A stretch of 64,000 nt of DNA from Geosiphon pyriformis uo1 (taxonomy: Eukaryota > Fungi > Glomeromycota). Position 1 is the stretch's first letter. Every line of letters starts with the position of its first letter. The notes below the pieces were generated by a model. The model made no database searches. It was not told the DNA's origin and was given only the letters and a program-made list of their open reading frames with translations. The translations under genes and the position numbers were made by a program. Where the stretch lies: NCBI GenBank assembly GCA_016748015.1, contig JAAOMT010000128.1, forward strand, positions 1,619,538 to 1,683,537, in the 5' to 3' direction. Positions 10,959 to 52,671 of this stretch are shown one piece after another.

Positions 10959-12452
10959 CTAAGAAGACATTAGGCAAATCTTTGAGTAAAATTAATTTTT
11001 CTTTAAATAACAATAAAAATAATGTTCTCTTAGATGCTCTACTGGAATTCTCCCTACCTTTAAAGAATCTGGTCAACATCTCTGTTCATAAATTTTTCAC
11101 TTTGGATATTGGTTTAAACAAGGTGATTGGAAAATCTTCTCAAAAAAGCTTCAAGTAGTCAGAAAGTTGTTTTCGAAGATCAATGGTTTTGAGGAGGCCT
11201 CTACCCTCTCAAATTTGCTGAGATCATCAGAGTAACATTCACTTCTGAATCAAGTTTGGCACAGGCTTCTAAAAAGGCTGAAAAAGTAAAGATTTTGGTA
11301 AACTCTGATCTCAGAAAATTATTTGAGCATTCAGATCGGGCTGTAATGTTGAAGGAAATTCCAATTGGTATATTAACTGAGGCTGTGCATGCTGTGCTAT
11401 CCCAGTTTGGCATAATTAAGTCGATTAAGATGCAATTGGTGGGGCTGTGGCAGAAAGCAGTGGTTGAATTTGAACAGGTTGAGTATGCTGATTTGGTTGC
11501 AGCATGTTGGTCTATCCTAATTGGGAAAGATGCAGTGCATGTTGCTAAGTCTAATGTAAACAAAAAATTATGGAATGTAAGAAATGTCCACAAAGCTCTT
11601 TTATATACTTTGCCAATGGAAACCAATACACATGATATCTGAGATTATATTACTTTGGTGGGTGAGTATCATTGACTATTACCTGGTCACTTATGCTCAG
11701 ACCAGGTGTGCTGCTGTTTGTTTTGATTCTGCTGAGTCACTGAATGCTGTCATGGAAACCATGTTTATTCTAAAAAAGGCCAATCTGTGCTGGTCTTGTC
11801 TTGTTCCGGCTAAGTGTGCCAAGTATGAAAAATTAGGCCATATATCTTTGTCTTGTTCTGTTGGTAGAAATAAGGATGTTTTATCTGGTATTTTATTACA
11901 TAAAACTCTCTCTGATTCTGATAAAAGCAGACTGGCTGCTATCTATGCTAAACACTCAGCTCTAATTGCTCATCCAGTTTCTTTTGGTGGTGTCTCATGA
12001 GTGCAGATTGCTGGTGGGTTTTTTCTTTTTTCTCTCTCTGTTCAGAATGTTTTGTTAAATGCTGGCTCTTTTTCAGAGATAAAGCCTACCCTACTGGTGT
12101 CTTTGGAATTAAATGATAGGTTTGTCACTCTTGAGCACAGTCTTGCCAATCTTACAGAGCATGTTAATATGCTGGCTAAGAGGTTGAACACACCTGAGCC
12201 AACAGTTTCCCAGCTTAGCTCTGGACATTAGTCATTAGTGACCTCTTCATTACAGAATCAAGAGACGGATATAGTGATGAATGAGAGTTTGGGTGTGGCC
12301 ACTAGTGGAAAGACTGTTGTGGGAGTGGTGGTTTTCAATTCTTTAGTTATCTCAAAAATGGAGGAAACATTGAACAATCTTTCAATCACAGTTATGAGCT
12401 CTTTGGCTAAAATAGACAATGCTGGTTCAGTTTTTACTCCTCTTCTTTCTCA

Positions 12453-15400: not shown

Positions 15401-18136
15401 AGAATTGGCCATTCCACTCATAAGCCCAGCAAGTTCAAATTATAGGAGATAATTTGAAGATAAATTCAGTTACTGAAGGTTTAACCACATCCAGAAAATA
15501 TGAATTCACAGCAAACAAGCATCGACAACATTTAAGAAAAGAGACCAAAAAACCTCCGATAACACCATGTTTATGATGGGTTGGACCAAGGAGAAGTTTT
15601 TTTGTCTTTCTTTTGGCACATATTCTATGATTCACTTCTATGTGAGGTCAAAAAACAGGAGAATGTATATGATTACAGGTTGAATTCTTATTTCATCTTC
15701 AAGTCTAGTCAAGTGGAATCTCAGGCTGGATTGACTTCATTTTTCGCTGCTAGTGCTTTTGTTGACAATACAATTTGGGTTGATAATAGTTAGATTACTA
15801 CACAATACATCCTCAATGTTGCTAGTGAATTCTTCAGTTATAATGACATTTTCATAAATAATGACAAGACTGTGGCCATCTCTATTAACTGCCAGATTTC
15901 AGACCCTTATCTGACTGTCAATGGTTTATCTATTTCTGTTACAAAAAAGGAGAACCTTATTATTATTTGGGTATTTTCTTGTCTTCCGAGAGTCTTTCAA
16001 AACCTAACTTGGCTAAAGCACATTAAGATGTTCATTTTTTTGTCAATTTTGTCTTAAGAAAGATGATCTCGGATAAACAGTTTGCATATTTGGTCTTAGC
16101 AGTTTTTTTTCCTATTATCAGTTATAGGACTCAATTCAGTTTTGTTCCTATTAGTGTTTATAATAAATAGGATGCTCTGGTTTGCAAAGACTTGAAGTCT
16201 AAATCTGGTCTTTCACTCAATTTCCCCAATGATGCAATTCATCATTCTTCTTTGTATAGTTTAAAAACTTTTGAACAAATTCAGACTGAGAGCAAATTGG
16301 CATCTCTTGTTTCCTTTGCAAATTCGCTAGGTATTTTGGGTTGGTTATTTTCTCACAGATTTTATGATCTCCAGATTCTTAGCTGGTGTTCTCAATACTC
16401 TCTATAATTTCCAGCTCAAATTAGAGTCAACTTCTCAAACAATTTTCTGGTAGATATGGTCTGCATTTTTTCTAGATATAATTTGTTCTTAGGTGGATTT
16501 CTAACCAGTGCATTTCATTTTTGGGGTGATATTTTTATGTCTCTTGTACTTGGCAATCATAATTATTATAAGTATGTCTTCTCCTTTCAGTGTTATGGGG
16601 TTGCCTTTGTGGACCAGCTGTGTGATAAACATGGCACTGTTGTTAGTTGGACAACCTTTAAGTAGTGAAAATAGTTGGACTCTTATGGCTCTGTTCTTAT
16701 CTGATTCGAGCTTTTTGTTTGTTTTTTTGGAGGTGAGGTTTCTCCTTCTGTTTGTCCTCCATCTTTGGATGGTTTCTTTTCTTTTGATATTCTTTAATCT
16801 CATGATTTTGATATTGTTGGAGTTAATTTGTTGCATGTTGATACTGCTTGTCTTCTTGTGTACATGAATAGATCTCTGAGTGGTCTGGAAACTTCTGGTA
16901 TGATGATGCTGTTGTTTTCTTTGAGGATGTTGGTCTGGGTATAGGTGTAAGAATCTCTGGTTTGGTTTCTTCTATGATGATAGAGTTGCAGATTATTGCT
17001 CTGGCTCTTAAGTGTATTTCTTCTTCTTGCTCTGTTAACTTGTTTTCAAACAGCCAGACTGCTTTGGATGCTTGCAAGGCAGAGTCTATGCTAACTCATC
17101 TGGATTTCAGGAATCGTGTTGGATTGAGCATTGCCATATTTCTAATGTCATTTGTCAAAAAAATTTGGATGTTAATTGGATCAAAGTTAAAGGACACTCT
17201 GGTGTCTCTGGTAATAAGTATGCTGATGCTCTTGCCAGGGCTGCCATCTTTTCTAATTGGCACTTACCTCACATGATCAAGGAACACTTTTTTAGAGCTG
17301 GAGGCATAACTGTTTCTGGTAATTTTAGGCATTTTGTTCATTATATTTTCTGATCTATTAACTGTGCATGTTGGAAGATTGGTTCTGGTTCCTGGGTCAT
17401 GGTAGACAGCCTGCATGCTAATATTGATTGGTCCAAATCTTTGTTAGTATGGCACCCTAATTTTCACTTGACTGCAGGTTTTACCAGTGTGCGCACTGTC
17501 GGCTTGCAGTCATATTTTATGAAAACATTATATTATTGCCTTCCTGTTGCAGTGTACAAATAACTCTATAATAGGTGTTACCTTGGTGTGATTTGGTTGT
17601 TTTGTGGTGATGTTGAGATTTTGAACCACGTTTTTTCTTGCTCTTTTGATATTGCTGGTTGTTTTTGGCTGGTAGAAAATCATGCATCTGTTTAAGAGAC
17701 ACAATTGGGTTTATCTTGCTATTTCTCTTGTGTTTTGCAGTTGTTGTTTACTTGTGTTTCTGATGTTGTTGTTGGTACAGCTTTGTGTAAAGGCTTTGTT
17801 TTTAATAAGTGGTATTAAAAGTCTTTTTTTGTTTTCAAGAACCCTAAAGTTGTGACTCAGAACATTGTGTCCTTTGTGCACAAATTTTGTCTTGCATTTA
17901 GAGATAATATCTGGCTGGTGTGAATCAAATACCAAGCTGTTATGAAAAAAAGTGGTCTGATCTTGCGTGATAGTTCCATATCTGTTTCAATTTCTGATCT
18001 TTCTGTGGTGCTCTCAGCTGGAGTGGTTAGGTTATTGAGTATTGTTGATGCATTTAGTGTTAGTTTCAGATTTCGTAAGTCTTGTTTGTTTTTTCTGAAT
18101 ACTGGGGACATGTTATCTGTTTATATAGGTGTCTAA
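12453..18136 (+). pseudogene. LINE ORF2: APE endonuclease, reverse transcriptase, RNase H, C-terminal zinc finger
   Basis: APE motifs TCNVRGMN, ITETKL, ILGGDFN, TIDYMF. RT motifs LQDICKAYDS, GLDQGEV, AFVDNT (DD decayed). RNase H motifs VYMNRSL (YTDGS-like), ELQIIALAL, FSNSQ, WIKVKGHSGVSGNKYADALA. Terminal xLFCGDVEILNHVFSC. Many premature stops. Confidence 0.9.
14568..15564 (+). mobile_element. Solo LTR of family A inserted in the LINE RT domain
   Basis: 997 bp, TGTTACCAGA...CCGATAACA, colinear with LTRs at 34399 and 44261. Flanks CTGT / CCAT both derive from CCGT; excision restores YRVYDGLDQGE. Confidence 0.95.
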
Positions 18137-19195
18137 TGTTGTCTTGATTGGCTTGAGTGGCTGGTTATATGTAGCAAATACATGACTTGCATCTAGTTTA
18201 AATTATTAATGTAATGTATAGTACTAGGTCATATTTAGACTTCACTCATTAAATGTTAAAAAAAAATAATAATAATAATATTTTGCTAACTTATATATAT
18301 TATTACTTATATAAAAAAAATATAAAAAAATAATAATAGTATAAATAGTCAATAACAAAGTAGATTATTAAATCATATAATATTAAAAATTTCAGAAATT
18401 TTAATATAAATTTTAGAAATTTTAAGAATTATAGAAATACTAACAGAAATATTAGAAATTTTAAAAATATCAAAAATTTTAATAATAACTTAAAAAAATT
18501 ATAGAAATTTTAAAAATCTTATATTATAAAGATATATATATATATAATAAAAATAATAAAAACCAAAAAAGTATTAAAAAAAAACAAACCAGCTTATTTA
18601 AAATCAGTTTAATTATTTTTATTTCAAATAAAATTACAAATTAAATAAACTATCTATTAAATTTATATTACTTATTTATAAATAAATTCAAAACTATTTT
18701 ATTAAAACTTATATTATTATGAGTTGGAGTAACAAGCTAATAAATAGCAAAAAAAAACAAAATTGTAAAATAATAAAAATAATCAAAGAAAAAATTACAA
18801 TAAGAGAGCAAATTAAATGAGTAAAGATTCAATGTGTATAATTAGTCTTATAAAAATCACAGTTACAAATCTTTTTTAAAAATCTGAAAATAGAAGAATA
18901 GTTTATAATTGTTAACAAAATAACACTAATGTTATTATTTTATGCTTCAACTTGGCAATTTTTAGAATCAATAACAGATATTATTATGTTTTTTAATTAT
19001 TTTTTTATTCAATAAATTACAAAAGCAAGCAATTACTTCTTAAGCTAATTCTAATAATACAAATCAAAAAGAGAAAAAAAATAAGGTATGTGAATGCTAA
19101 CAAGTAATCTTTTATTCTAAGATATTCAAATACTTAAAAGTAAAGAAAAGAAAATAACCAATATAAGAAGAAGTAATTGATAGTGGGTTTTATTT

Positions 19196-19919
19196 TGTTA
19201 CTTTGATCATGTTTTTCTACAGCTAAGAGACTCATCACTTATATAGCTATTGAAAGTGGTCAATGATTAGGTCAATAACTAAGTCAATAATCAGGTTAAT
19301 AATTAGATCAATAATCAGATCATTGATCAAATTAATAATTAGGTTAATAATCAAGTCAACAGTCAGGTTATTGATTAGATCAATGATTATTATTTAAAAA
19401 TAGGATGGCTAATTATATGATATTAATGGCTAATATATGTGATAACTAATAAAAAATATGGGTTTTAACCATAACAATATTATTATTATATTAATACTAA
19501 TAGCATTTATTATAATTACTTAACAATATTAAAACAATAGCTTTTAATTATAGCTATTAATGAAATACTAATTATTACTTTATTATTTTATTATTGTAAT
19601 TATTTTGAGTTATTAACTAATTATAAAAAAAGTGTTAAAATTATAACGTCAAAGATTGTTTAATAAAAAACACCAGAAAAAAGTATAAACATGATTAAAA
19701 ATTAAAATTACTTATTAAAAAAATGTAAACATTAAAATAAACTAATTACTAAATTAAAAAAATTTCAAATTTATTATTAACTATTAACTATTAAATATCT
19801 GTTTATTATACAAAAAATTTTAATTCAAAATTCTCAAAAACTTTCAAAGTATATTAAATCTAATCTAAGTATTAAGTTATAAACATATTAAAACCTATTT
19901 AAAAAATTTATTCATAATA
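19196..19919 (+). repeat. Probable 5' LTR of element E, with ~12-bp tandem array (GATCAATRATCA-like, ~19258-19390)
   Basis: TGTTAC at 19196; decayed CATAATA end directly before the PBS. No partner LTR in the window to confirm. Confidence 0.45.
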
Positions 19920-22232
19920 TTTGGTGTTTTTTGTAAAGTATAATTTACAAAAAACAAAGTACCAATTAAATAACAATTAGTAAAAATAATAGAATTAAGT
20001 TTTATAAAAAATAATTATCTGAAATTTGTAAAATTATTATATAAACATTTTCAAAAAAATTTAAAATTAAATTCTTATTATTATTTAGTTAAATTTATAT
20101 TGAATTTCTATATTAACAAAAGATTTTAATAAAATATAAGAGAAACAATCAACATAAAAATTACAAAAGCTAATTTTACAAGATTATTAGAAAACACTTT
20201 AATTATTATTAATTATATAACTTTGTAACTATTTTGGCAATCTATAAATATATTAAAAAAAATTTCCATTTATTACAAGAAATTTACAATTTAGTCTAAC
20301 TATATAAACACTAATTATAATATCTAAAAAAATAGTTTTACTATTATAAAAAAAAATCTAAATTGATTTATCAATAGAATTATTATATTATTATATACTT
20401 AGCAATACTATTTAGATTTTATTAAAAACTGTATCTATATCTATATCAAAACTAAAACTTATTTTTCAAAATTATTCTAAAAATAATTATTTATTAGAAA
20501 AATACAAAGAATTTTTGAAAAATTTTAATTACAATTAGCTATATTTATTTTATTATAATTATTATTACCAAAACCCAATTTTTACTATAATTATTATTAA
20601 AAAAAGACGAAATTAGAGAAAAAAAATTAAAAAACAAAAAAAAACATAATTTTAAATTTGATTGTATTTTAAACTTTAGTAATTTAAACTTTAAAAATTA
20701 ATTAAATTTTAATAAATCCAATTATACAAGAAAATTTATTATTAGTACTACCAGTTTATTTAATATATTTACTCTAATTGCCAAGTTAAAAAAATTTACT
20801 AACAAAAAAAATAATATTTAAGTATGATTAAACAATATCAAAAAAGCTATTGTTATTAATAATTGAAATATTATTAGTCTTGTAAGCAATTTTATGTTTT
20901 TTTTAAAATATAATTAAATCTTAATATTAAAGTCTTATTATGAAACTAATATTATTTAATAATTATAAAATTGTGTTTTTACAGAATTTTAGCAATTACA
21001 ATAGTATTATCTGATTATAGTAATAGCAATTAAAAAATCAATATTAAAACTTTGATCCAAAAATCCAAATCCTAAACTATAAATTTAAAATTTAATAAAA
21101 ACAATATTTATTATTAAAATATTATATATTAATATTTCAACAATAACTACAATTATAACTAATATATATATTTTATTTTTAGTTATAATCTATTATTGCT
21201 TATTAACTCTTAAATTGGAAATTAGTATTACAATCATAACACCAAATTCTATTTTCAGCTCAAATTCAAAACTCAAAACCAAAAATTATTTAACAAAACT
21301 AAAAATTAGCAATAATAACATATTAATTAATTTCTAATATTGTCAATTCACAAGTTAAAATTTAAATCCAAAATTTAAAAAATATTCAACTATCTTTTTT
21401 GAATTTCCAGAACTATTTAAGTTTTTTTGCTATAATTAAAACAATTATGTTAACTAATAATTTCCAAAATCACAACATAATTTTATTTATAGCTATTATT
21501 AAAAACAACATACTTACTGTTATCTTTTTATTTAAATTGAAAAAAAAGCTGTTATTTAATAAAGCAGCCCTAAACTCAATATAATTTATTATTATCATAT
21601 ATATAGATATTAAAGTTAATAATCAATCTATTAAGTTTATTTTTATTAGTAGTTTAATAAATAATATTATTATATAATAATTTATAAATCAATTAGATTA
21701 TTAAGTTAATTAAACTATCAATATATGTATTATTACAACTAATAAAATTACAAAAATCTCAATTGGCAAAATTGATAACTTTTTATTTAAAATCAATAAT
21801 ATTATAATATTAATCAAGATTCTTATTATGAAAGCTACATAATATTAAGTTCTTATTATTAATAATTAGTTGTCTAAAACCAATACAATATTTAACTAAA
21901 ACACTTAAAAACTTTAATTAAGCTATTAAAAACACTATATAAAAATATCAACAACATATAAATATTTCAAAACAACTAATAAAACATTACTTATTGAGTT
22001 AAAAAAAGAAGAAAAAAAGCTTATCTTAAAAATATACCAAGTTTTCTAAACTAATAACTTAAAAAAAAAAGCAAAGAAATTATAAGTTACTATATTTACT
22101 TATATATTAATTTACTAAAAAAAACAATACAACTATATTACAAAAACCATATAGCAGTCATAAAAACTCACACTATTATAAACTAAAACTAATTTATATT
22201 AACTATAAGAAAAATTTTTTATTAATAAGTAC

Positions 22233-23172
22233 TGTTATAAGTTAATTTAATAAGATATAATTATAATATTTGGCACTTGTAATTTAAATGCTAAAAACAA
22301 TATAAAGATCAAATAAATTGGTTTTGATTATATTGTAAATTATTAATATCTAAAAAATTTTTTGTTTAAAGTTCTATCTATTAAGTTTTTTTGTTATAAA
22401 ATACAGAAACATTGTTTTTTTAATTAGATTACTATAGTTGTATTTTTTTTGAATTAATAAGTATAAGTATTAGAATCTAGTATTGTTTTTTTGATTTTTT
22501 GATAAGCTAATAAGATAAAATTAATATTTAAATCTAAAAAAAGCTTTTTTTTTATCAGATTATCATAAAATCTATTTTCAAATAATTAATTTTTAATGTT
22601 ATTATTTCATAAAAAAAAATTAGTATTTTATTAATTATTATAATTAAAAATAATTGGTTTAAATTATTAAAATTTTGAAACTATTTATGCTAATAGTATC
22701 TAGTCTAAAACAAAAATAAAAAAACAATTAATTTAATTTTGGCAATTAGAATATTGGAATTAGATACTTGTAAATTGAATAATAAGATTTTATTAAATTG
22801 ATTAAAGAATATATAAAATAAAAATAAAAATAAGATATTAGAAAGAAATTGATTCTTGTTTATTTTATTTTTTTTCTATTTACTAAAACTATTCTTTTTA
22901 TACATATTTTTTAATTTTATAGAATTGCTTTTAATTGCTTATTATTGTTGGTTATTGCTTATTATTTTAGTTATTGCTTTATTTTTTTCCATTATAATTA
23001 GTTATTTTATGTTATTATTAGTTATTTTGTGCTATTTTAAATTATTTTGCATTATTTTAAGTTAATTTGTATTATTTTGTTTTATTTTATGCTATTATAT
23101 TTTTTTTATATTATTATATAATAATTATATTCTTTTAATAATTTCAGATTGGTTTTTTTTATTTAGATAATA
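22233..23172 (-). repeat. 3' LTR of element D
   Basis: Aligns along its length with 61304-62270; adjacent to a minus-strand PPT. Confidence 0.85.
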
Positions 23173-23517
23173 TTATTTTTCTCTTTTAAAATTGAGTTCC
23201 TGTAAAATTATCTGTATTTTTAAAAATTGTTCTTTTAGTAAAATATTCAATTTTTATGTTAAATATTGTTTTTTGTAAGTTTTTAAACTAAAAATTTGTT
23301 ATTTATCCAATATTATTAACTGTAATAATCTTTAATAAATTGTTTAATTATATAATTAAATAGTATTTAAATGTTAAGTATAATTAATATGTTGTCTTAT
23401 AGTATAGTATTAAATTGTTTTTTCCAACAAATTTTTTTACTTGTTTAAAAGCTTTTCTGTAAAATATTTATTTGTTGTTATCTATGTATAATGTTTATAG
23501 ATTTAGTCTTTTGTCAA

Positions 23518-24304
23518 TATTACTTATAGAAAAAAATACATAAAAAAAATAAAAAAACAGATCATAAAATAGACCAATAAGAAAATAATATTTAATAAAT
23601 AAACACATTTTTAGAAAGTAGTATAAAAAAAAGTAAAAATGTGTAAGATTTTGTATAATATAAATTATATATATAGTAAAAGTATTAAAAGCAAAAAAAA
23701 CAGAACAGAAGCTAAAAACAAGTAATTATCTAATACTTTTCTCTTCAAAAGATAGTTTTCCTATAATTTAAAATAGAATTATATTTATATTAATAAAATA
23801 TTCAATTATTATCCAATCTATGTTATTATTACTTGATTAAAAATTTTCATTACTTTCTTATTATTAACAATTTATGTTGATAATATCCAATACTTAACCA
23901 CATTAAACCAATAATTTTTGATTATAGCTATTAATAAAATATTAATTCTTTACTTTTTTTCTTATTTTTATTTTATTTTATTTTTTTTGTTGTTACTAAT
24001 TAATTTAGAAATTAAGTATTAAGTAATTAATATCAAAAATAGTCTGGTAAAAAATCTGTAAAACAAAAGTAGAAAACTTAAAGATAGCTTATCAGAAGGG
24101 CATAACTGTCAAATTAAATTGGCTACTATGCTAAAAACAGAAATTGGGAAGAAACTATTAATTAAATTTTTGTTTATTATACAAAAAACTTAATAAACTC
24201 TTTAGATTACAAAAATCTTTAAAAATTATTATTAGCAATAGCTATTAAGCACCAAGTTATAAGTTTGTTATTTGTTCCAACATTCCAAATAATCATCTAT
24301 AATA
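23518..24304 (+). repeat. 5' LTR of element C
   Basis: TATTACTTAT...TATAATA (decayed TGTTACTCAT...TGTAACA); matches 32427-33192 plus 54185-54237. Confidence 0.85.
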
Positions 24305-24368
24305 TTTGGTATTCTTTATGAGATATAATCTAACAGAAAACCAATACTAGTAACAATTATCTGTAAAA

Positions 24369-27300
24369 GTGGCAAAATCAAAAATAGTAGTAACAAACTA
24401 TTTAAGATTTACTAAATCTTTATTTTAACAATATTAACAACAATTAAGATTAACCAACAACTATTTTCTAGTTAATCAGTTTTCAATTTTTACATTAATA
24501 AGAGAATTATATATTTTCTAGGAAAACAAGCAAATTCTGAATTAGCAAAAGGAAATTTTTACAATAAATTACTTTAATACACTAGTTTACTACTAAATTA
24601 CAATTTTGTTATAATTATTACTAAAATTAATTGTAAAATTAAAAAATATATTCAGCAAAAGTTTCCAATTATATTTACAAACAAAGACAAAACAAAATAC
24701 AAACACCAGCAAACACATCTAAAACAATATAACCACTTAATTAAAAAAAACTCAAAGTTGTTTTCTTAATACATTTATTATACTATTATATATTAAAAAG
24801 TACTATTAATATATTATCAGGATTCATATTATTATCTACAGTAAAATCAACTGTTACAAGAGTTCTATTTTAAAACAATTAAAAGAAATCTAAACTATTA
24901 AAAACCTACAGTAATTATTTTAAAAGATTTAAATTATAACTAACAATTTTATTAGAACTTTAATTATTGCCACTTCAACTTAATTTTAGATTTATTAGTA
25001 ATTAAACAGAAACCAAATCAAAAGAAAAAAAAACAATAATCAAAAAATTAATAATTAAAACCTAATTCCAAATAATTCAAAAGTCTAAATTCTGATTATT
25101 CAAACTCAGCAAAACCTAAAAAATTCAAATTTACTTCTTATTATTTAATAAAACTTATCTTTAGTTATCCAAATTAATTCACTACTAGTTGCACTAATTG
25201 CTGTCTTTTTACAATTATAATAACAACTACTAGTATTAATGACATATATATCAATTGCCAAATTAGAAAACTTCATCAGTAAAAAACAATAACATTCAAG
25301 CCTAATTGAATAATATAGTAAAAGCTATTACAGTCAATAAATAAAACAATATCAAAGCCTTTTAAGCAATTTTTTACTTTTTGTAAAATACCACAAACTC
25401 ATGATATTAAAGCCTAATAAACAAATCACAAGATTTTAACACATTTAAGATTATATTATTACAATATTTTAACAATTACAACAGCATCAACTGTCTGTTA
25501 ATTGGTTTTATTACTATTAAACAAGATGATACTAAAGCAGTTACTACTTACTTGAAATGTTTTTACAGAAATCTGTGCCAAATTTAAGCAATTAATGCTA
25601 ACTACTTTATAATATTACAAATTTTAAATTAATTTATTCATAAATTATACAGCAGTTTGTTATAATAAGTATATCTACTATACCTAAATATATTTCAAGA
25701 TGTAGTCATCTATGCCAAAAATTTCAAATTAGCTAAGCTTGAAGCTAATTATGTCCAAGCTGTAAATCTAGTAATAAATGAATTATTTGAATTAAATATC
25801 AAGTTGAAACAATTTGGCAAAACAATTAATCAGAAAATTGAGAAATACTTAATTAGCAATCAAACAATTTATCAATTTTTTCAATGTTGTGATCATCAAG
25901 AAGTCTTTAATTAATTTTAAAATTAGTTGTATTTATTATCATCAACTTCAGCAACTCAAAAATAATAGCAAAAACATGTATTTACCACTATTGTAATAAA
26001 TAAAAACATTTAAAAATAAACTATAGGACAAAATTAAATAATTAATAATTGAGAAATCAATATTAAAACCCTAATTACAGATTTTAAACTCCAAACTACA
26101 CCAACAATTCATTATTAGAACCATACTAATATTAACTATAATATGTACTAATAATACAACAGCCAATATATATACCTTCAATCTATTAAACTCTAATACT
26201 GGTAATTATTAAGTCTTATAGTTACCAGTTATTTATTAATTTTAATAAATTCAAATACTATTTCAAATTCTAATTCAATTATCAACTAAAAACCAAAGGC
26301 TAAAAGTTATGTATACTTAACAAAATTGGAGATTAACAATAGTTATGTACCAACTGCTATTTAGTTCTTCAAACCAGTCATTAAGATTATGTTAACAAAA
26401 TTTAGAAAATGAATATGCTCAAAATCCGAATTTTAGAACTATTTAAGTCTTCTGGTAATCTTAGAAATCACAATATTCAATTTGCTAAAAACCAATAACT
26501 AATTACTTATTAACAACATTTTATCAGCAACTATTATTAAAGACAAATTATTAGTTGCCATATTTTTCTTTAAGTTAAAAAACTTAATAGACATACTGCT
26601 ATTTAGTAAAATCATTCTTAATACTAAACCAATTACTGCTATATATACTAATATCAAAGTTAATGGTTATTTTATGAAACTCATTCTTAATAGTGGTTTA
26701 GCAGACAGTATTATTATTAGACAATTTATAAACCAATTAAATCATTAAGTTGATCATATTGCCAATACCAGAATTATTACTGTTAATAGAGTAACAAAAA
26801 TTTCTATTGGTAAAATTGTCAACTTTTTATTTGAAGTCAATAGTATTATCATGTCTATCAAAGTTTTAATAATAAAAGTTATATAATATCAAGCTTTTAT
26901 TAGTAATAATTGGCTGTTTAAAACCAATGCTGTATTTAACTGAAATACTCAAGAGTTCTAATTAACATTTGATGATTAGCATAATTAAGTATCTACTATT
27001 TGTAAATACTTTAAAGCTTTTTTAAGAAAGCAATTATTAATTGAGTTGGAAGAAAAAAAAATTACTTAGGAAGTTTACCAAGTTTTATGGGCCAAAAAAA
27101 ACACAATAAGTTATTACTAATACTTACTTGGAATAAAAAAAAAAAGAAAAAAAGGAAAACAAATCTTAAACCACCAACTTTATAAAAAAACCAGCAAATA
27201 ATTAGAGTATCTTATATTCAACATTAATATTAAAAAAACACTTATTCTATATTCTATTCAAGTAAATAAACTGTAAAAAAAAGCTTTCATCTATAAAAAC

Positions 27301-30300
27301 TTGTATATTATCCAAAAAAAATATGAAACATATATCTGTTACTATTGTAAAACATATTACTAGGAACAATTTGGATAACTAAAAAGACAAAACAAATAAA
27401 ACAATAAATTATGTCTCACTTGTAAAGAAACTCTACTTGATAAAAGAATATAGAATAACATTTCTAATTATAAAAGAATATGTAATACATTATATTAATA
27501 CACAATTTTCACTAATAATTAGAAAAGCAAAAAAACATTTTTCAATACTATATAGAATAGAGCTTTTTTATGTTTAGATGGTTATCTACATGATAAAAAT
27601 AAAATCTGGCAAATGGCAAGTGCTAAAATCAAAAATGTTTTACTTAATAAGATATTAGCAATCAAAAACAACCCACCAGAATCTATTAAAACCATTTTTA
27701 TTTCAAATTCAAACATCTTTGTTAACATTATAAATAATCCAAAACAATTCTATAAATATTATCAAAATCTAATATCTACTTAAAAAAAACAAGAGCAGTA
27801 TTTAAAACAATTAAATATTAGACTCTGTAAACATTGTTTAATTTCCAGTGATTTCAAATATTGTGACAATTGTGATTTTATTTACAATTTACTACTGCAC
27901 ATAATTTATTCAATCTCTAAAAAAAAAGAATTAATTAACAGTTATGCTTTAGAATTAGAATTGAAACTTAATTTCAATTAAACTTTAACAATAACAACAG
28001 TAATAATTCTTTCACAATAACAATAACAATAACAATAATTCAAATTTTAATAAAAACTTCAAATAATATATTATGCTTTTAGATCTTTTAATAGAACAAA
28101 AATTTAAATAATTTAATAATAATAACAAAAATATCATATCAGAATACATATATGATACTAATATAAAGTTTAATCTCAAATATTTTGAAAAAACTGCCAT
28201 CAAATTGAAATCTTATTTGTATATTAGCATAAATTTAAAATTAGCACTAAAAATTCTAGCAACAACAATAATACAATTAGCATCCAAATCTAGTTTAGTA
28301 AAAAAAAAGATTAATATTAAAGAAAAAATAATTAATACAGAATATATAAAAAATATTATTACAATACTACAAAATAAATCGAAAAAAGCATATATAATTA
28401 AACCAAATAAAAAAATAGCACAGGCAATATTTTTGCTTTTGGTAAAAATAACTTAATTAATATTAATAAAAATAAAATAAAAATTAGAAATAACAGCAAA
28501 AAAGATAAATAAATTTGGATTTATAAATAAAATAAAGATACCAGTTAATATAATAGAAAAAAAACAATTGGTTAGAAAGAAATTATCTTCATTTATTAAT
28601 CAATTTCTATTTTATTATATAACTAATATATATTAACTATTAAATAAAAAATAAAAAATCAACCTCAAATTTTTGAATAGACTATATTATTTGTAAATCA
28701 AGAAAAATTGCCATTATTAATCTCTATATACTAGCCAAAAACCATAAAAACATTAAAATTTTAATATATAATACAACTGAAAACCCAATAGAAATATCAA
28801 GTAAAACTATTATTAAATACTTAAAAACTAAAATTAAAGATTAATCACCAACAATCATTTCAAATTTTTCACAACTGTGTAGATATATGGACATTATATT
28901 ACAAACTATTTACAAACAAAAAGAATATTATTTGCTGCAACCAAATAATTAGAGCAAATAAATTTAAGAAACTTAGATCTATTCCAATATATACAAATTA
29001 AGCTATTACTTAACAATTTTACTGATATTTTTGTAAATAAAAATAAATTTGACAGAACTAACATTATTTAACACTAGGTTAAAACTAGAATACAATTTTA
29101 ATTAAACAAAAAGCATATTAAATACTACTTACTAACTATAAAATTATTTATTAAAAAATCAATCACATGTTAAACAATGGATTAATTCAACTATTAATAA
29201 GTTTATGATTATTATCAGTAGTATTTATCTAAAAAAAAATGGAAAGATTTGCTTTTATGTAATTATAAAAAACTTAACAGTATTACTTATAAAGACAGCT
29301 ATTTAACTCCACAAATTCAAAAATAGTTTTAACATTAAATTTAAATAGTGATTATTGACAAGTAGTCATAAATTCAGCCAACAAGAAAAAAACAGCATTC
29401 ACTATCAAAAAAAAACTTTGAATTTGATGTTATGCCTTTTGAATTAACCAATGCTCCAGTTACCTTTTGATAATTAATGAAAATTATTTATATTAAATTA
29501 TTATAGAAATCAATAATAATCTACTTAAATAACAAAAATGTGTTCTCCAAAATATTTAACAATTATTTTTACTATCTTTAGCAAGTATTTAAAAGATTAA
29601 AAAAAGCAAAATTAAAGTTAAATACTATTAAGTATTTTTTTGAAAAAACTAAACTCAAGTTTTTAGAACATGTCATAAGTAAAAACAGCATTAAAATAGA
29701 TTTAAATAAAATTAAGATAGTTAAAAACTTTTTAATATTAACCAACTTAATATAACTAAAAACATTCTTGGAATTTATTGGATATTATTACTATTTTATT
29801 TAAAACTTCTCCAAATTGGCTTAATTATTATATTAGTTTTAAGCAAAAAATATCAAGTATGAATAAATTAAAAAACAACAAAAAGCTTTTAATACATTAA
29901 GAAGAAAGTTCATTTAAGCTCTAATTTTAATCTACTTAAATCACAGCAAGTTATTTATTATTACTACTAATATATTAAGTCAAGTATTGAAAGCTGTATT
30001 ATCACAAAAAAAATTAAATAAATAAAAACATTCAATAGCATATGCCAGTCAAAATTTGAGTATAGCTAAAAAAAACTATAAAACTCTAACACTAGAATAT
30101 TTAGCTATTTTTTGGACTGTTATTAAATAAAAAGAATACTTAAGCCAAAAACTTAATATATATATTAACCACAAAAAATTGACATTAATTTAAAAGCAAA
30201 AATTTGGAAATAATTGTTATGCAAGATAGAAAATAAAACTATTATCATTTAATTATAAAGTACATTATAAAAATAAAAATACTAATAACTTATCATAAAT

Positions 30301-32413
30301 AAAACAAATTTAAAAACATTTCAATTCAAAAATATAACAAAAAATAAACACACAAAAATATTAACAACTCCAATATTATATTAATACTCAATAGTTTAAA
30401 AATAAATTATCTCAAAAAAAACAAAACAACATAAAACAGCAATCAAAATATTTTATTACTTATTAAAATATATTATATTAGAAATACAAAAAAATCTAAA
30501 CCAACTACTTAAAGTAATTACAAAACCAAAAAAAGAAAAAATACTGTTTAATATGTATTTAAATCTAACTGCAAAACATTTTTATAAAGAAGCAATCATA
30601 AAAAAAACCAGAAAAAGATACTATTGGCCATCAATATATCCAGATATTATCTAATATGTTCAAAATTATAATGTTTGTTAAAAAAAAAAACAAGATTCAG
30701 TAAACCACTAAAACCAATTAAAATAAGACAACTATTTGATTAGATTGAAATTGACTTAATAAAACCATTAATAATAATTAGCAAAAACAATTAATACATA
30801 ATAATAATTATAGATTATTATACAAAATAGCCAGAAGCTAAAGCCATTTAAAAAGCAAATGCAAAATTTATAACCAAATTCATATACCAGAATTTGATTT
30901 GTTAACATAAATGTTCAAAAAAATTGTTATTAAACCAAAAAACTCATTTTATAATTAAAACATTAACAGAATTAAGTTAAAAATTTGGAATTAAAAAACT
31001 ATTATTATCTTTATATTATTTATAAACAAATAGCTTAGTTAAAAAGTTTAACAGAATATTATACAAAACAATAACCAAGATTAATTAAAAAAACCAGAAT
31101 AAATAATATTTGTTTATACTATTAATATTATTTACTTATTAAACAATAAAGCAAGATATTATATAAGCAATATTATTTTAACTAGTCTATAATAGAATAG
31201 TAATATTATTAATTAAGACAGATATTAATACATACCTAACAGAACCAATAACAAAAGCCAACTTTCAAAAAACATTGCTAAAAAAAACATATAACTTAAT
31301 AAAAACTCTAAAAAACAAAAGATAAAAAGCAGTTAATAATATACAAAAATCACAAAAAAAATAAAAAAACAATATGACAACCAATTATCAAAAAAACCAG
31401 TCAAATTCAAGATTAAAAACAAAATATTTTTACATTGTACCAAAAAAAAAAAACAATAAAGTAAAAAATTTAACTCTAAATGAGACAATTTATTTTATAT
31501 TAAAAAAATTCTAGAAAATAAAATTTATAAATTAAGATAGAACAACAAAATTTTAACTAAAACAATACAAAGTAATTGGCTAAAACCATATTATAATATA
31601 GTATTATTATTCACTAATAATATTCTACAATTGAGAATACAAGAAATACTAGTCAAACCAAATAAAATTTCATAAAATTTGAAACCAATTATAATTATTA
31701 AAGAAAACATAAAAAGTAGATAAAATAAAAGTATATAAAAACACAGTATGTGTGACAAAAACAACAATAAAAAATAAAAATCTCAGACTACATTTATACA
31801 ATAGTACAACAATTGTTTTAAGCCATAAATTAACAACAATTAGACATAAAAATTATTATCAATTACTAAACAATTTGTTATAAAAACACAAAAAAAGAAA
31901 GAAAAACAAAAATTACTCTATATTAACAATTATAAAACCAAATAAAGTATTGATTAGATAAGATTATAAAAAAAGTAAAGAATACTTTTAGAAAAATACC
32001 AATTATTATTCTAACAGAAGAACTAACTAAAAAAAAAACTGAAAACTATGAACAAAATAACTTTCAATAGAATACTATTACTATTAATTGAGACAAAAGC
32101 TGAATATTTAGGAATTGTATATTAACAAATCCAAAAAATGTTTAATCAAAAAATAATACAATAGATTAAAGACTTTATTAAAAAAAAACAAGTTCAATAC
32201 TATATATTAAAACAATTTATTAGCCATCTATTATATTTCAAGATTATTTAAAAATACTATTATATTTAAAAATAGAAACAATAATTATTAACCAATAAGA
32301 AAAAATAACTAACTTTTAATTTAAAAACATAAGAACCAAAATTGACAAATAGTATTAGAAAAAGAAGTAATAAACTTAATTTAAAATAAAAATTTTAATA
32401 GAACTTAATGATA
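24369..32413 (+). pseudogene. Element C coding remnants: Gag-PR-Cys-rich-dUTPase-RT-RNH (to 30313), integrase (~30343-31720), accessory ORF (~31780-32413)
   Basis: Colinear with element B throughout (e.g. dUTPase ORF 28205-28456 IQLASKSSL...KKIAQAIF); very many stops from transitions. Confidence 0.8.
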
Positions 32414-32426
32414 AAAAAAGAGATAA

Positions 32427-33192
32427 TATTACTTATAAAAAAAAGTACATAAAAAAAATAGAAAAAACAGATTATAAAATAAACCAATAAAAAAATAATA
32501 CTCAATAAATAAACATATTTTTAGAAAATTATAATACATTTTTAAAAATAAGCACATTTTTAAAAAATAATATAAAAAAAAATAAAAATATGTAAAGTCC
32601 TATATAACATGAATTATGTATATATAGTAAAAATATTAAAAGCAGAAAAGACAAAACAGAAGCTAAAAACAAATAATTATCTTATACTTTTCTTTTTAAA
32701 AGATAGTTTTTCTATAACTTGAAATGGAATTATATTTATATAAATAAAATATTCAATTATTATTTAATTTATATTATTATTGCTTGATTAAAAATTTTTA
32801 TTACTTTTTTATTATTAACAATTTATGTTGATAGCATCTGATATTTAATTATATTGGACTAATAATTCTTGATTATAACTATTAATAGAATACTAATTTT
32901 TTACTTTTTTTTTATTTTTTTTATTTTGTTGTTATTAATTAATTTAGGAATTAAGCATTGAATAATTGATATCAAGAATAGCCTAATAAAAAACTCATAG
33001 AACAAGAGTAGAAAACTTAAAAATAGTTTATTAGAAAAACATAACTGTCAGATTAAACTAGCTATTATATTAAAAACATAAATTGGGAAAAAATCATCAA
33101 TTAAATTTCGGTTTATTATACAAAAAACTTAACAAAACTCTTTAAATTACAAAAACTTTTAGAAATTATTATTAGCAACAGTTATTAAGCAC
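32427..33192 (+). repeat. 3' LTR of element C, left part (the last 53 bp lie at 54185-54237)
   Basis: Follows PPT AAAAAAAGAGA-TAA; matches the 5' LTR up to TTAAGCAC and resumes after element B. Confidence 0.88.
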
Positions 33193-34052
33193 TGTTACTC
33201 ATAAAAATGAAAACAGATATAGAAAAATAGTAGGCCAATAAGAAAGTAGTAGTTAGCACGTGAGCACATTGTTCAGCAATATGAAGCAATATCAGAAATC
33301 ATAACACATCACTCAGCAATATGGAGCAATGTCAAGAAAATATGGCACATTGCTCAGCAATGTGAGCATTGTTTGAGAAATTATAGCACATTGCTCGAGA
33401 ATGTGAGTGATCTTGTAGAACCCAAATTATGTATATATAGTGGTAGCATTAGAAGTAAAAAAGACAGACCTTCTAGTTTAGATTTAATCTAAGCAATCTT
33501 TCCATTCACAAATATTAATAAATAATTATTCATTATCTTAATCCACTTTCCACTATTAACACTTCATGTTGATAGCAATTGATACTTAACTATACTGGAA
33601 CAATAGCTCTTGATCATGGCTATTAACGGAATACTAACTTGCAATTGCATTGGCTCATTTCTTCATTTTTTATTTTTTTTATTTTTTTTCTTTGATTTTA
33701 TTGTTGTGTACTAAATTAATTAAGAGAATTAAAGTGCTAAGTTACTAATGTCACAAATAATCTGGTAAAAAATCCAGAAATAAGAATAGAATTATATATA
33801 TTAACAGATAGCTTACCAAAAGGGCACAACTGCCAGATTAAACCAGCCATTACACTGAAGACAGAAATTGGGAAAACAACTTGAAGAAAACAACTTAAAC
33901 CAACCATAGTGAATCTCTGTCCATTATACAAAAAACTTGGCAACAAACCTTCAGATTCATTAAACTTTTAGATATTAACACCAGAATACCAAACCAGCAC
34001 TAAGTTATGGATTTGTTATTTGACTTAAGATCCCAAATAATCATCTGTAACA
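33193..34052 (+). repeat. 5' LTR of element B
   Basis: Direct repeat of 53321-54180; U3 tandem GCACATTGCTCAGCAAT units; TATATATA at ~33432. Confidence 0.95.
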
Positions 34053-34064
34053 TTTGGTGCTCCC
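34053..34064 (+). promoter_or_regulatory. Primer-binding site of element B
   Basis: TT-TGGTGCTCCC immediately after the LTR; TGG complements the tRNA CCA end. Confidence 0.8.
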
Positions 34065-34398
34065 TGTAAGATATAATCCTACAGAAAACCAGCACCAACA
34101 ACAATCATTTAAAAGTGGTAGAATCAGAAATTATAGGGACAAACCATTTAGGATTCGCCAAATTTTTGTTTCAACAGTACAGCCAACAATTAGAATTAAA
34201 CAATAATTATTTCCCAGTAAAATCAGCCTTTAACTTCTATGTCAATAATAAAATCACAGACTGCTTAGGAGGAACAGTTGACATTGAATCTGCAAGAGAA
34301 AACTTCTATACAGAATTATTTCAACATACCAGTTTACCAAAAAACTACAGTTTTGCACCAATCATCAAAGAAATCAATCAAACCATTAAAAGATACAC

Positions 34399-35390
34399 TG
34401 TTACCAGACGAAATTAGAGATATCATTGAGCATGAAACTATCTTATAATTCTTATCATTAATTAGCATATATTATCATTTCAAATTATTACTTATTACAT
34501 TAGCAAAAATGTCCGAAATTATTATTTAATTAATAACCCAAATTGTACACAACACAAATATAACTTAATTGTGATGATCAATCATGCAATACCCCGAACT
34601 ATGTAACATTCAAAAGTTCACCAAAATTTATAGAAATTTGCCAAAATAATTGATAGTTTACTGAAATATCTAATAGTTCACAGAAATAACTTGTAGTTCG
34701 CTGAAATGTATCTTTAGTTCAGCGAAATTGTAGAAAATAGCAAAGTTCAAGTTCATAGAATAGTGTTATGACAAGTTGTATAAAAAAAAGAGCTTCTTTC
34801 TTCGAGAAAATGTATCTTACTTTAGATTTATCACTTAGAACCATTTCTACACACACAAAAAGAAATAAATATCAGATAATTCAAAAAACCAAATTCTTTA
34901 AATTATTGCACTTGGAAAATCCTCAAAAACACAACTAACAGTTTGAAATTGATTAGCTACCAATTTCAGTAAACTGTTAAAACACTTCCAGGCCTGGATC
35001 CAAAATGACTTTAACAAATCAATTTCTCATTTCTTCTTTTTCTTTCTTTTTCTTTTATTTTCTTTTCTTTTATCATCATAATTATTAGGGTAGTCTACAG
35101 ACAAAATTTCTGTAGAAAAGTTGACTTTCACAGCAAAGTAACTATACATTTTAGTGAGCTTCCAGACAAGCAATTCCTGGAAAAGAGTTGACGTTTACTA
35201 CAATGTAACTACATAAAGTAACTGGCATGAAATTGGCCATTCTACTCATAAACCCAGCAGCTCAAATTATAAGAGATAATTTGAGGATAAATTCAGTTAC
35301 TGGAGGTTCAACTACATTTAGAAAATGTGAATTCACAGCAAACAAGCATCGACAATATTTAAGAAAAGAGACCAAAAACCTCTGGTAACA
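34399..35390 (+). repeat. 5' LTR of element A
   Basis: TGTTACCAGA...TCTGGTAACA (10-bp inverted termini); direct repeat of 44261-45252. Confidence 0.95.
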
Positions 35391-35403
35391 TTTGGTGCTC
35401 TCC
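35391..35403 (+). promoter_or_regulatory. Primer-binding site of element A
   Basis: TT-TGGTGCTCTCC directly after the 5' LTR. Confidence 0.8.
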
Positions 35404-35435
35404 CATGGAAATAACACAGCAACAACAAATTCAAA

Positions 35436-38400
35436 GTGGCGACTGCCTCAGACATCACAACCTTAGAGTACTATCAATTGATTTACACACACTGCAAACA
35501 ACAATTTGAAATACGTGACAGAATCATAGCTTTCAAGAAAACACTTTTTCAATACATCGAAAATTGAATCAATGACTACCTCTTTGGAAACTATAACATT
35601 ACAACAGTTAAAAGAGATCTTTTTGAGAACATACTACACTATTCCAACACTGAATCAGAAAACATTAGTGCTGAAGCTTGCACTACTTATTTTGAAGAAC
35701 TTGATTATAATATCATTTGATTCTGTGAAGAAAAATATCCTGCAAACACACAATTTGTCTTTGAACTCAAATCTGAACCTAAAACCAGTAGCAACAAAAG
35801 ACAAAGAGATAACCGACCTGTTCACATAACACCCAATACTCCCAAAATATTATTTAAACATTTACAAACACCTGAACAAAGAACCAGTTCAAAACTTCCA
35901 CTTACTATCACACCTTTTCCAGCTTCACTTGCACAAGCACAAACACCTAATTCACCTTTAAATCGATTTGCAAGACCAGAAGATTTTACATTACTCAGAA
36001 GTCCCACCAGACAACAAGAACCCCTTCAAACTAGTTCCAATCTCCTTGATTTTCTAGCTGAAAATCAAAGTGAACACTCTAAGACAGCAGCAAATGAAGA
36101 AAACAACTCTGAAATAACTAAAGAAGAATCAATAGACAGTGAAAATGAAGAAGACGAAATGACAACATACATCGCAAAAATCCCTGAATTCAATGGAGAA
36201 GATATTGAGACCAGTCCTCAAGAATGGCTCGACCAAGTTACTAAAGCTAGAGATGCAAATAGATGGAATACTGCCAGAATGTTAAGAACAATTCCCTATT
36301 TTCTCAAAGAAACAGCAGGAGAATGGTTTGAAAACCTTGCCACTCCATTTAATGATTGGAACACTTTCAAAACAGCCTTCCTTGAACAGTTCACTGACAA
36401 TAACACCTCCATCATTCTTCGCAATTGTTTTCGAAATATCAAACAAGAACCCTCCGAATCTATTATGACTTATATTGGGAAATTCAACAAACTTCTCAGA
36501 CAAATTCGCCAACTCGAGACAAACAATTATTATTCCAATGCTCAAATCTTGGATCAATTTATCGCTGGTCTAAAAGATAAACTAATTAAAAAGGTTCGCC
36601 CACATGTGCCAGAAGATTTAAACTCTGCCATACAGCATGTGAAAAGATATGAAATGGCCATAAAAGAGGCCAACCGCACAAAACTTGTAAATTTGGCAAT
36701 TGGAGAAACCAGCTCAGCAGCTGAGAAAAAAATTGACCAACTCACAAAGAAGGTTAAAAACTATTTTACCAATCAACAACAACAGCAACCCCAAAGATAT
36801 CAACCACTCCAAAGACAAAATCAAAATAACTTTGCACTACTTTCCAATAACCAGCCTCAGAATTGCCATTACTGTGGAATTTCTGACCACTGAAAAAGAG
36901 ATTGCAGAAAGCTACAATGAGACCAACAAAATAGGAGTAATCAACATTACCCTCCACTACAGCAATCTTATTATTAACCGCCACCACCAGCTTACTATCT
37001 ATCAAGACCCCAATATCAAAATAACTATCATCAGCCTGTCCCACAGCCAATCCCACAGCAATACCAATAACTGCTCACACAACATTATCAAGTACCTGCT
37101 CGAAGACTGCTTACACAAAATCAATTCACACCACAAAACTGATACCAAGCAAACAACAATAGAATCAGTTCAAACAACCAATTGGTTCCCCAAAATACCA
37201 CTCAACCAAGATCCAACCACTACCATACTCAACCCAGTTATTTAACAATGCCAGAAGAACAGGATTTTTACCATACTGCACTTTTGGAAGGTAGAGCTGC
37301 AGCACAACAACAAAACCCTTCCTATATTTCCACCACAATTCCATCAGCCAGAATCGCTGAAAACGCTAATCTTTCAGATATATTCCTTTTTAAGTTCGAA
37401 GCAAATGAGTCACCATTTCTGCTTAGCAATGCAGCCACCAATGAACAAAAAGCAATCATGGCCATGTACACTGAAGCCGAAATCGAAGGAAAGACAATTC
37501 GCTTGATCCTAAACAGTGGATCCACCGGAAGCATTATCACCTACCAGTTAATGCAACAGTTAAAAAGAAATGTTGACCGACCAGCTCAAACAGTAATCGT
37601 CACTGCTGATGGCATGAAAAAGACCCCAGTAAGAGAAATTGACAATTTTCTGTTCACTCTTGATGGAATCACCATTCCAGTCAAAGTTCTTGTAATGGAC
37701 GCACCCCAATACCAAGCTCTTGTCGGAAATGATTGGCTTCAAAAAGCCAATGCTAATCTGAATTGGGAAACACAAGAGTTAACAATCTCCTACCAAGGAC
37801 AACACACCTGGGTACCTGCCATTTGTGGTACATTCAACAAATGCTCTGAAAAAGCCCCGGCTTTTGAATTTGAACTGGAAAAGGAAAAACCTTTCATTGA
37901 AACATTCATGGCTCTTGGATCAACGTCCAACTGGGCCGATGAAACAGAACAAGAACATTTTACTCTGCACTCTAAACCTGAAACCTCTGAATGGAATATA
38001 TCTTACTCAAAACCCGAACCAAGGAAACAACGCCCCTATATTCCTCTTAAATGTAAGAACTGCCACAAGAAACTATCGTCAATGGGAGCCTGCATTTCAC
38101 CTAAAAAAAAATATAAGAATCATACTTGTTATTACTGCAAGGCTTGCCACAGAAAATGATAGGGCCATCTAATAAAAAGGAGTGGAAAATAGGACAACAC
38201 CTCTTGTTTGACTTGTGGAGATATGCTACTGGAAGAATGCAATTGGATTGATGTAGCCATGAGAGGAGGAGTCTGCGATCAGACCTGCCAATATGCTTTA
38301 TCAATTTCAGAAAAAGTAAAAAGAAGAACACCCTTTAATGCAGCATACAACAGTGCTCTCAACAAACTTTATCACTATTCCCATGATGCCGAAATGATTT

Positions 38401-41045: not shown

Positions 41046-41075
41046 AAAACAAAAACCAACACTCAACTTAACCAA

Positions 41076-42055: not shown

Positions 42056-42078
42056 CCAACCAAAAGAGCCAACAAACA

Positions 42079-43464: not shown

Positions 43465-43572
43465 TTTAATTTTACTAGTTATTCCTTTATAATTTAGAAA
43501 TAATTAAAACAAAAAATAATATAAAAACCCATACACCAAAAATAATTTTCTTTTATTTTCAAATCTCTTATA

Positions 43573-44249: not shown

Positions 44250-44260
44250 GGAGAAAGTTA

Positions 44261-51200: not shown

Positions 51201-51245
51201 ATGAGACAAATCTAAAAACACTTCAAACCCAAAAATATAAAAAAA

Positions 51246-52617: not shown

Positions 52618-52671
52618 ACAACCAAAAAGTATATAAAGACACAGTACACATGACAAAAGCAACCAAGAAAA

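Follow-up and report, generated by a model that had tools for sequence, protein, structure and literature searches.

An unusually pure and context-broad C-to-T erosion of nested Ty3/Gypsy elements in Geosiphon pyriformis

What kind of process can take about half or more of the C and G letters out of an older retrotransposon, leave it colinear with its younger relatives, and act well beyond CpG? The question is raised by a nest of five Ty3/Gypsy long terminal repeat (LTR) retrotransposons in Geosiphon pyriformis, carried on a stretch of 64,000 nucleotides of contig JAAOMT010000128.1 that we refer to as the window. A preliminary description of this DNA had noted C>T and G>A changes that accumulate with the age of the layers and resemble repeat-induced point mutation (RIP). 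The erosion of these repeats is confirmed as real and strong, and it is unusually pure and broad, in a lineage where it appears to be unreported; the losses are post-insertional, fall on both strands and run from C:G to T:A.

The nest was resolved by k-mer chains, junction reads and Pfam matches into layers E, D, C, B and A, lettered from the outside inwards as in the preliminary description and matched to it through two LTR counts that were reproduced. Each insertion is flanked by a 4-bp target duplication. Layer E spans about 19526-22232 and 62271-63530 and encloses D (22233-62270, minus strand), which encloses C (23518-54237); B (33193-54180) lies in the 3′ LTR of C, A (34399-45252) lies in B, and a solo LTR (41076-42055) lies in A. 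TG..CA LTRs, target duplications and the order gag, protease, reverse transcriptase (RT), RNase H are all present, which makes the substrate a Ty3/Gypsy LTR retrotransposon. Colinearity was traced by purine/pyrimidine k-mer chains; in a permissive self-BLAST, noise from AT-rich sequence obscured the matches. Together with alignments, these chains bear out the earlier view that C, D and E have been reduced almost to A and T yet still follow B, with B and A richer. GC content is 15.3% in the left part of E, 15.7% in the interior of D and 19.3% in that of C (15-19%), against 33.7% in B and 36.9/32.7% in A (33-37%), and the observed/expected ratio (o/e) of CpG is 0.35 in A, 0.14 in B and 0.06 in the old layers.

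The spectrum of change can be read directly from the paired LTRs, since the two LTRs of an element start out identical when it inserts. Alignment columns within three of a gap were dropped. The LTRs of A (34399-35390 and 44261-45252, plus strand, target duplication ACAC/ACGC) differ by 65 transitions, with no transversion and no gap in 992 columns, and those of B (33193-34052 and 53321-54180, plus strand, GCAC/GCAC) by 83 transitions and 2 transversions in 860. The 5′ LTR of C (23518-24304, plus strand, TCAA/CTAA) pairs with a 3′ LTR that B has split into a main part (32427-33192) and an end (54181-54237), both on the plus strand, and this pair shows 97 transitions and 6 transversions in 719 columns. 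The left (3′) and right (5′) LTRs of D (22233-23171 and 61304-62270, minus strand, GTAC/ATAT) are separated by 123 transitions and 15 transversions in 863 columns. Pooled over the four pairs, transitions outnumber transversions by 368 to 23 (368 of 391 differences; 148 of 150 for A and B alone). Plant LTRs show transition:transversion ratios of a few to one. The counts reported earlier for the first 60 nucleotides, 5 of 5 transitions for A and 10 of 11 for D (22233/61304), are reproduced exactly. All 7 differences found in the six target duplications compared are C>T or G>A, among them those of C, the source of the CCAA>TCAA/CTAA example given in the preliminary description.

Could this be ordinary decay of methylated CpG? 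Of 362 transitions in the four LTR pairs with a readable context, 314 lie outside CpG, so that the claim of erosion beyond CpG holds. The 185 transitions at CpC and CpT, set against 23 transversions, cannot be disguised CpGs; the excess is therefore not confined to ancestral CpG, and decay of 5-methylcytosine (5mC) at CpG as the sole process is rejected.

Direction was established by comparing the older layers with the main internal part of B (45253-53320, plus strand, Pfam matches Asp_protease_2, dUTPase and RVT_1), which is separated by A from a short first part (34053-34398, plus strand). Columns in windows below 80% purine/pyrimidine identity were dropped. The interior of C (24305-32426, plus strand) contains gag, protease, dUTPase, RT, RNase H and integrase by colinearity with B, although its longest stop-free stretch is 114 amino acids (aa). 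From B to C (6957/8505 columns), C>T outnumbers T>C by 667 to 180 and G>A outnumbers A>G by 603 to 152, with losses of 0.51 of C and 0.60 of G that are even along 8 kb and still reach 0.55 at second codon positions. In the interior of D (54238-61303, minus strand, longest stop-free stretch 93 aa), which is joined to B and C by reverse chains and continues left of the C insertion as a remnant between the D LTR and the C target duplication (23172-23517, minus strand), the losses relative to B are 0.54-0.61 for C>T and 0.56-0.63 for G>A. The left part of E (19526-22232, plus strand) comprises the 3′ half of a B-type LTR, a primer-binding-like site near 19920 and an eroded gag/protease region, with chains from 19526-19947 to the B LTR and from 21024-21922 to the C/B interior; its right part (62271-63530, plus strand) runs towards dUTPase, with a chain from 62276-63319 to B. 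Losses are 0.58 for C>T and 0.74 for G>A on the left, and 0.61 and 0.70 on the right. Changes between A and B, two mildly eroded relatives, are nearly symmetric.

The A-type LTRs give the same direction. Among four of them, 87 columns have one copy lacking C or G and 19 have one copy possessing it. A heavily eroded A-type LTR that runs off the window end (63532-64000, plus strand) shows 14 C>T and 18 G>A against 3 T>C and 1 A>G in 207 columns. Two solo A-type LTRs, one in the pol region of A (41076-42055, minus strand, CCAA/CCAA) and one in a LINE-like (long interspersed nuclear element-like) element (14568-15564, plus strand, CTGT/CCAT), the latter a mildly eroded comparator, are eroded like paired LTRs. 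Erosion extends past the range first proposed, 18280-33192, to 54181-64000 and probably 8780-9725.

Does nesting depth provide a time series, as the preliminary description suggested? Loss per non-CpG cytosine in the LTR pairs rises from 0.078 in A to 0.129 in B, 0.39 in C and 0.52 in D, and its ratio to the transversion rate per site, pooled and corrected for multiple hits, is 104 (95% confidence interval 69-163). This ratio is constant across layers (chi2 p=0.52), the transversions expected from A to D being 1.5, 2.3, 6.9 and 12.3 and those seen 0, 2, 6 and 15. The nest therefore does serve as an internal series in which older layers are more eroded, and, the ratio being constant, the jump from B to C could reflect an interval between insertions while the process itself ran steadily. 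The repeat spectrum predicts a GC content of about 9% at equilibrium, and the oldest patches stand at 9-11%.

Sequence context separates two components. The order of rates is CpG, by far the fastest, then TpC, CpC and finally ApC/GpC, with no CpA preference. CpG is changed at 0.40 in the A pair and 0.66 in the B pair, against 0.09 for CpA in the A pair, and the CpG rate in A is some 5-6 times the non-CpG rate; since CpG is the fastest context, ordinary decay of methyl-CpG makes up a share of the signal. As expected of such decay, the fast component is flat across the 5′ base, with ACG at 0.48, CCG at 0.68, GCG at 0.33 and TCG at 0.41 in the A and B pairs together, and TpCpG is not favored in the four A-type LTRs (TCG 0.36, ACG 0.40, CCG 0.28, GCG 0.43). 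For cytosines outside CpG the 3′ base has little influence, with CpA, CpC and CpT changed at 0.59, 0.57 and 0.60 from B to C, and at 0.092, 0.098 and 0.083 in 105 LTR-family copies from across the genome. The 5′ base has more, as a T raises the non-CpG rate 2-2.5-fold over G or A (TCH 0.13, GCH 0.05, with H being A, C or T), and pyrimidines at -3, -2, +2 and +3 add smaller gains in the copy set and from B to C. With Y for pyrimidine and R for purine, the A and B pairs give 0.15 for YCA and 0.13 for YCY against 0.05 for RCA and 0.08 for RCY.

Preference for a 5′ pyrimidine bears on two other explanations. In a fungus of the soil surface, deamination of pyrimidine dimers under light would account for cytosines with a 5′ pyrimidine mutating about twice as fast, but cytosines without a pyrimidine neighbor are still changed at 0.05-0.32, a 3′ T has no effect on the rate, genes are spared, and there is no excess of tandem CC>TT (14 in the same copy against 12 in different copies). 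Ultraviolet light as the sole cause is already largely refuted and was rejected, and light seems very unlikely as the explanation; it could add to another cause without replacing it. The other explanation is a TpC-preferring DNA cytosine deaminase of AID/APOBEC type acting on repeat chromatin alongside methyl-CpG decay, for which the 2-2.5-fold effect of a 5′ T recurs in four data sets, and T is also preferred at -2. Such a TpC preference resembles the targets of APOBEC3. However, strand-coordinated clusters are lacking, the sense-strand excess of G>A mostly disappears once the flanks are fitted (+0.12 +/- 0.08), C>G is rare (1 of 23 LTR-pair transversions), and the mutated target duplications rule out editing of cDNA, so we regard a deaminase as improbable. 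Editing before insertion was rejected as a candidate in its own right, as target duplications and LTR pairs both differ.

Whether the pattern is RIP depends on its target, its clusters and its strand. A true RIP process would be RID-dependent, premeiotic and set off by pairing, and would have acted through very many cryptic sexual cycles on a broad target, each cycle adding roughly a single change to a copy. A nearly pure C:G>T:A spectrum in repeats is what it predicts, RID has been reported in the clade of arbuscular mycorrhizal fungi (AMF) (PMC8298701), and the target context of RIP differs among fungi (PMC3318451). There is also a weak excess of same-polarity changes in two tests, small among neighboring changes from B to C (702 against 670, p=0.01) and at p=0.08 over the four LTR pairs, which vanishes in distance-binned tests. 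In those tests the correlation between sites 1-4000 bases apart is about zero, and no strand-coordinated clusters are seen. The split between C>T and G>A per copy is binomial, with chi2/df of 0.99 in 99 of the 105 LTR-family copies (about 29 changes each) and 0.78 in 116 of 120 LINE-family copies, these being the copies with enough sites; simulations of strand-coherent mutation give 29 for a single round and still 1.9 for 32. Overdispersion of the load among copies is mild (chi2/df 1.5-1.6), C is eroded evenly along its length, solo LTRs have fared no differently from paired ones, and neither a CpA nor a TpCpG target is found. In Neurospora, by comparison, clusters account for 76% of RIP mutations, and 92% of these clusters are confined to one strand (PMC7296669). 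The RIP label in the Neurospora sense is not supported, the defining tests having failed on target, clusters and strand, and we hold RIP itself to be unlikely, if somewhat less so than a deaminase. Of the two interpretations offered in the preliminary description, broad-context methylation fits and Neurospora-type RIP does not. The composite RIP index in the old layers lies between -0.20 and +0.26, with TpA/ApT at 1.02-1.15 and the substrate index at 0.89-1.22, and a composite index so near zero may be why index-based screens would overlook this erosion.

The same erosion is found across the genome in two unrelated element families. At the protein level, using the codons of A as the frame, 105 annotated LTR-family copies show changes of C>T/G>A type at 0.095 per opportunity, against 0.007 for reverse transitions and 0.0025 for transversions, a result repeated in three open reading frames (ORFs). 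The LINE-like element (9780-18140, plus strand, 35% GC, CpG o/e 0.13-0.14), itself a mildly eroded comparator, has 120 relatives in Geosiphon, in some of which RT and RNase H domains are recognized; as a set the relatives give 0.088, 0.021 and 0.0056 with the same 5′ T bias. Six ArfGAP orthologues, which are under selection and serve as a method control only, are symmetric at 0.0105, 0.0084 and 0.0033. Protein columns with fewer than 15 copies or a majority below 60% were dropped, and the copy set left out P0121, which is identical to A (the dUTPase frame of A matches this Geosiphon protein with 100% identity over 84% of its length), as well as P0175 and P0228, which are not from Geosiphon.

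Is the process confined to repeats, or does it act on the whole genome? The alternative is a genome-wide C>T bias, with the GC content of gene regions kept only by selection or gene conversion. The control is a block of single-copy genes (1-8770, GC 37.7%, CpG o/e 0.85) encoding an AAA proteasome-type ATPase, a BAR-PH-ArfGAP protein, whose best named matches are from Glomeromycotina at 64-67% identity, and a Tho1-type protein. Its transcripts are spliced in sequencing runs X2 and X3, which skip GT..AG introns and must therefore be RNA runs, although they are listed as 'DNA?' and 'RNA? (probably DNA)'. The block has no variants in runs X1-X3, so that restriction to repeats rests on composition. 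Its 14 introns with RNA splice support have a GC content of 27.8% and a CpG o/e of 0.62, low values that lend the alternative some weight, against 16.6% and 0.06 in the old layers; intergenic stretches have 29-37% GC with CpG o/e of 0.83-0.97, and fourfold sites 31% GC. All of these are far above the predicted 9% or so, and boundaries are sharp, with GC falling within about 100 bases at 8775. Composition thus argues for an erosion restricted to repeats, and we think a genome-wide bias about as improbable as a deaminase. The preliminary description had asked whether single-copy neutral DNA shares the spectrum and rate of the repeats; introns and intergenic DNA have kept their GC and CpG, an answer that concerns composition only. 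Four metagenome loci tried as a cross-species control were rejected as distant (35-48% identity) and of unknown host; they have 36-56% GC and a CpG o/e of 0.69-1.01.

A sequencing, amplification or assembly artefact can be judged from the same material. The read-support check with run X1 covers 1-9800, outside 18280-33192, and this leaves the idea some room, but X1 holds 0.99 of the sampled words of that interval, the 11% GC patch at 8780-9725 included, and X1 contigs aligned to A and B show 3468 sites with a transition and 511 with a transversion, with the reservation that the assembly may have been built from X1. Furthermore, C and G are both lost on one strand, which rejects a bisulfite-type artefact, and the changes scale with nesting depth and end at element edges. 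An artefact is accordingly the least credible of the explanations considered here. Matches to A and B in the RNA runs (38 pieces in X2, 12 in X3) were not counted as evidence of silencing.

The cause that we consider likely, with some reserve, is a methylation of cytosines directed at repeats, in CG as well as non-CG contexts, with the methylated bases turned into thymine in vegetative nuclei. Silenced repeats would carry dense CG methylation of DNMT1/DNMT5 type, giving the flat and fast CpG component, and a lower level of non-CG methylation of DIM-2 type, giving the remainder. The 5mC may deaminate spontaneously or on the methyltransferase, with the resulting T:G mismatch poorly repaired, and conversion would proceed site by site in nuclei that are mitotic or resting, not in premeiotic bursts. 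Old copies would in this way be driven towards about 9% GC and their reading frames destroyed. Published work on other fungi lends support: DNMT1, DNMT2, DNMT5, DIM-2 and RID are reported from the AMF clade (PMC8298701), transposable elements (TEs) of Rhizophagus are highly CG-methylated (10.1101/2021.03.30.436303), and those of Phycomyces carry CG and CHH methylation (PMC11258239).

Several points weigh against a slow conversion of methylated cytosines. The methylation, enzyme and timing steps are inferred. The preference for a 5′ T and a pyrimidine-rich flank has no match among the published methylation patterns compared, and a low CHG rate (0.043 against 0.126), which matches Phycomyces, occurs in the four A-type LTRs only, CHG sparing being absent from B to C and in the C and D pairs. 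The transversion clock is crude, with 23 events of which 14 are A/T, the protein-level tests cover only annotated, mildly eroded copies, the same-polarity excess described above is small but present, and the introns are themselves somewhat CpG-poor. A less probable reading is an active, sex-independent defence that mutates repeats of whatever class, at every cytosine but with TpC favored, and is invisible to CpA-based screens, carried by a DIM-2/RID-type enzyme or a deaminase whose target is unlike that of any described fungal mutator.

Methylation followed by conversion has its closest model in Zymoseptoria tritici, of which the process in Geosiphon may be a slow, context-broad version. There, Dim2-dependent mitotic C>T changes in repeats make up >95% of mutations, >98% of them at CpA with CpG spared (PMC8016269), and arise without the need for sex, with TE inactivation as the proposed role. 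Nearly all changes are C>T and in repeats in both fungi (here 368/391), but in Geosiphon CpG is fastest, CpA, CpC and CpT are about equal and a 5′ T is preferred, differences that also count against the model; enzyme dependence and mitotic timing have been shown in Zymoseptoria, which belongs to a different phylum, and are only inferred by us for Geosiphon, where accumulation through single events would fit such timing but does not demonstrate it. With the RID/DIM-2 RIP of Neurospora crassa (PMC7296669) the Geosiphon erosion shares C:G>T:A change in repeats, AT-rich dead relics and sharp gene boundaries, but it lacks the CpA target, the clusters and the strand coordination, keeps a steady ratio to transversions with an index near zero, and has left element families that remain highly repeated. 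The TpCpG hypermutation of Pucciniomycotina (PMC3318451) is likewise repeat-associated, C>T, influenced by a 5′ T and outside Ascomycota; in Geosiphon, however, TpCpG is not above other CpGs, and the 5′ T effect falls on heavily changed non-CpG cytosines. Decay of methylated cytosine in TEs of plants and Agaricomycotina (PMC7497039, PMC3318451) similarly lowers GC with age, by about 1% per Myr in Brachypodium, and strikes CpG fastest, whereas here 314 of 362 classed transitions fall outside CpG and there are hardly any transversions (148:2 for the two young pairs).

Outside Dikarya, Zoophthora radicans and its allies combine a Ty3 expansion with suspected meiosis-independent RIP-like change (PMC11105155), a claim made there from CpA-based indices and with caveats; the present evidence comes from aligned copies and is not CpA-directed. 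The same source gives Dikarya as the only group in which RIP has been observed, RIP signatures are reported as undetected in Gigaspora or Mucoromycotina (10.1101/2021.03.30.436303), and a kingdom-wide screen gives RIP-like signatures, with CpA preference, only in ascomycetes. Geosiphon and Ambispora are absent from 12 of the 19 supplementary files of that screen, and the other 7 may bear on the point. A Glomeromycotina TE survey gives 41.2% LTR cover in G. pyriformis and, in its available text, uses neither 'RIP' nor 'repeat-induced' (PMC11952901). No report of this erosion in Geosiphon was found in the literature covered, which did not extend to the genome paper, where it may be mentioned.

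The remaining features of the window can be described briefly. Left of the recognizable E lies an AT-rich stretch (18280-19525, GC 9-18%) that has no purine/pyrimidine match elsewhere in the window and contains a 12-nt tandem array of about 11 units (19250-19387). The interior of A (35391-44260, plus strand, several stops) holds gag, protease, dUTPase, RT/RNase H and an integrase-like region, with Pfam matches to Retrotrans_gag, Ty3_capsid, Asp_protease_2, dUTPase and RT_RNaseH; its integrase-like ORF (42595-43062) has no Pfam match. In both Ty3/Gypsy subfamilies a dUTPase domain (PF00692) lies between protease and RT (38193-39374 and 48565-49776) and is retained in many genome-wide copies; it would not counter deamination of cytosines in DNA. 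Both subfamilies also have coding-like extra sequence between integrase and 3′ LTR (43849-44310 and about 52600-53300), and the one in A, a frame of 153 aa, is without a Pfam match. The LINE-like element contains a further TG..CA insert resembling a solo LTR of another family (10151-10958, CTAA/CTAA flanks), which spans a gap of 20 N. The 11% GC patch at 8780-9725 is without CpG, has an abrupt start some 460 bases upstream of the Tho1-type gene, and is probably an ancient eroded repeat. Two motifs of 40-50 nt upstream of the gene block (8551-8600 and 8702-8745) have matches of about 90% in other contigs of all three runs; the second looks like a hairpin. Neither has an Rfam match, the single hit of an Rfam search of 1-10500 being below threshold and ignored.

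For the biology of Geosiphon the consequences are practical as well as conceptual. More than 220 of its proteins named 'hypothetical protein' (P0121-P0227 and P0229-P0348) are eroded LTR or LINE copies, and because these are transposon relics the gene count of the genome is likely inflated. Transposon ages based on LTRs or Kimura distances would be much inflated in this genome unless transversions alone are used, and since the mutations do not come in strand-coordinated bursts the pattern should not count as evidence of cryptic sex. An all-context C>T process at about 100:1 in a relative of mycorrhizal fungi that branched off early would carry repeat-directed hypermutation past Dikarya and the ascomycetes, would imply that index-based screens miss context-broad forms, and offers a way of testing directly what is done by the DIM-2/RID-type enzymes known from reports on the clade. 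Should the sex-independent defence prove true, it would be the first clear RIP-like hypermutator in Glomeromycotina.

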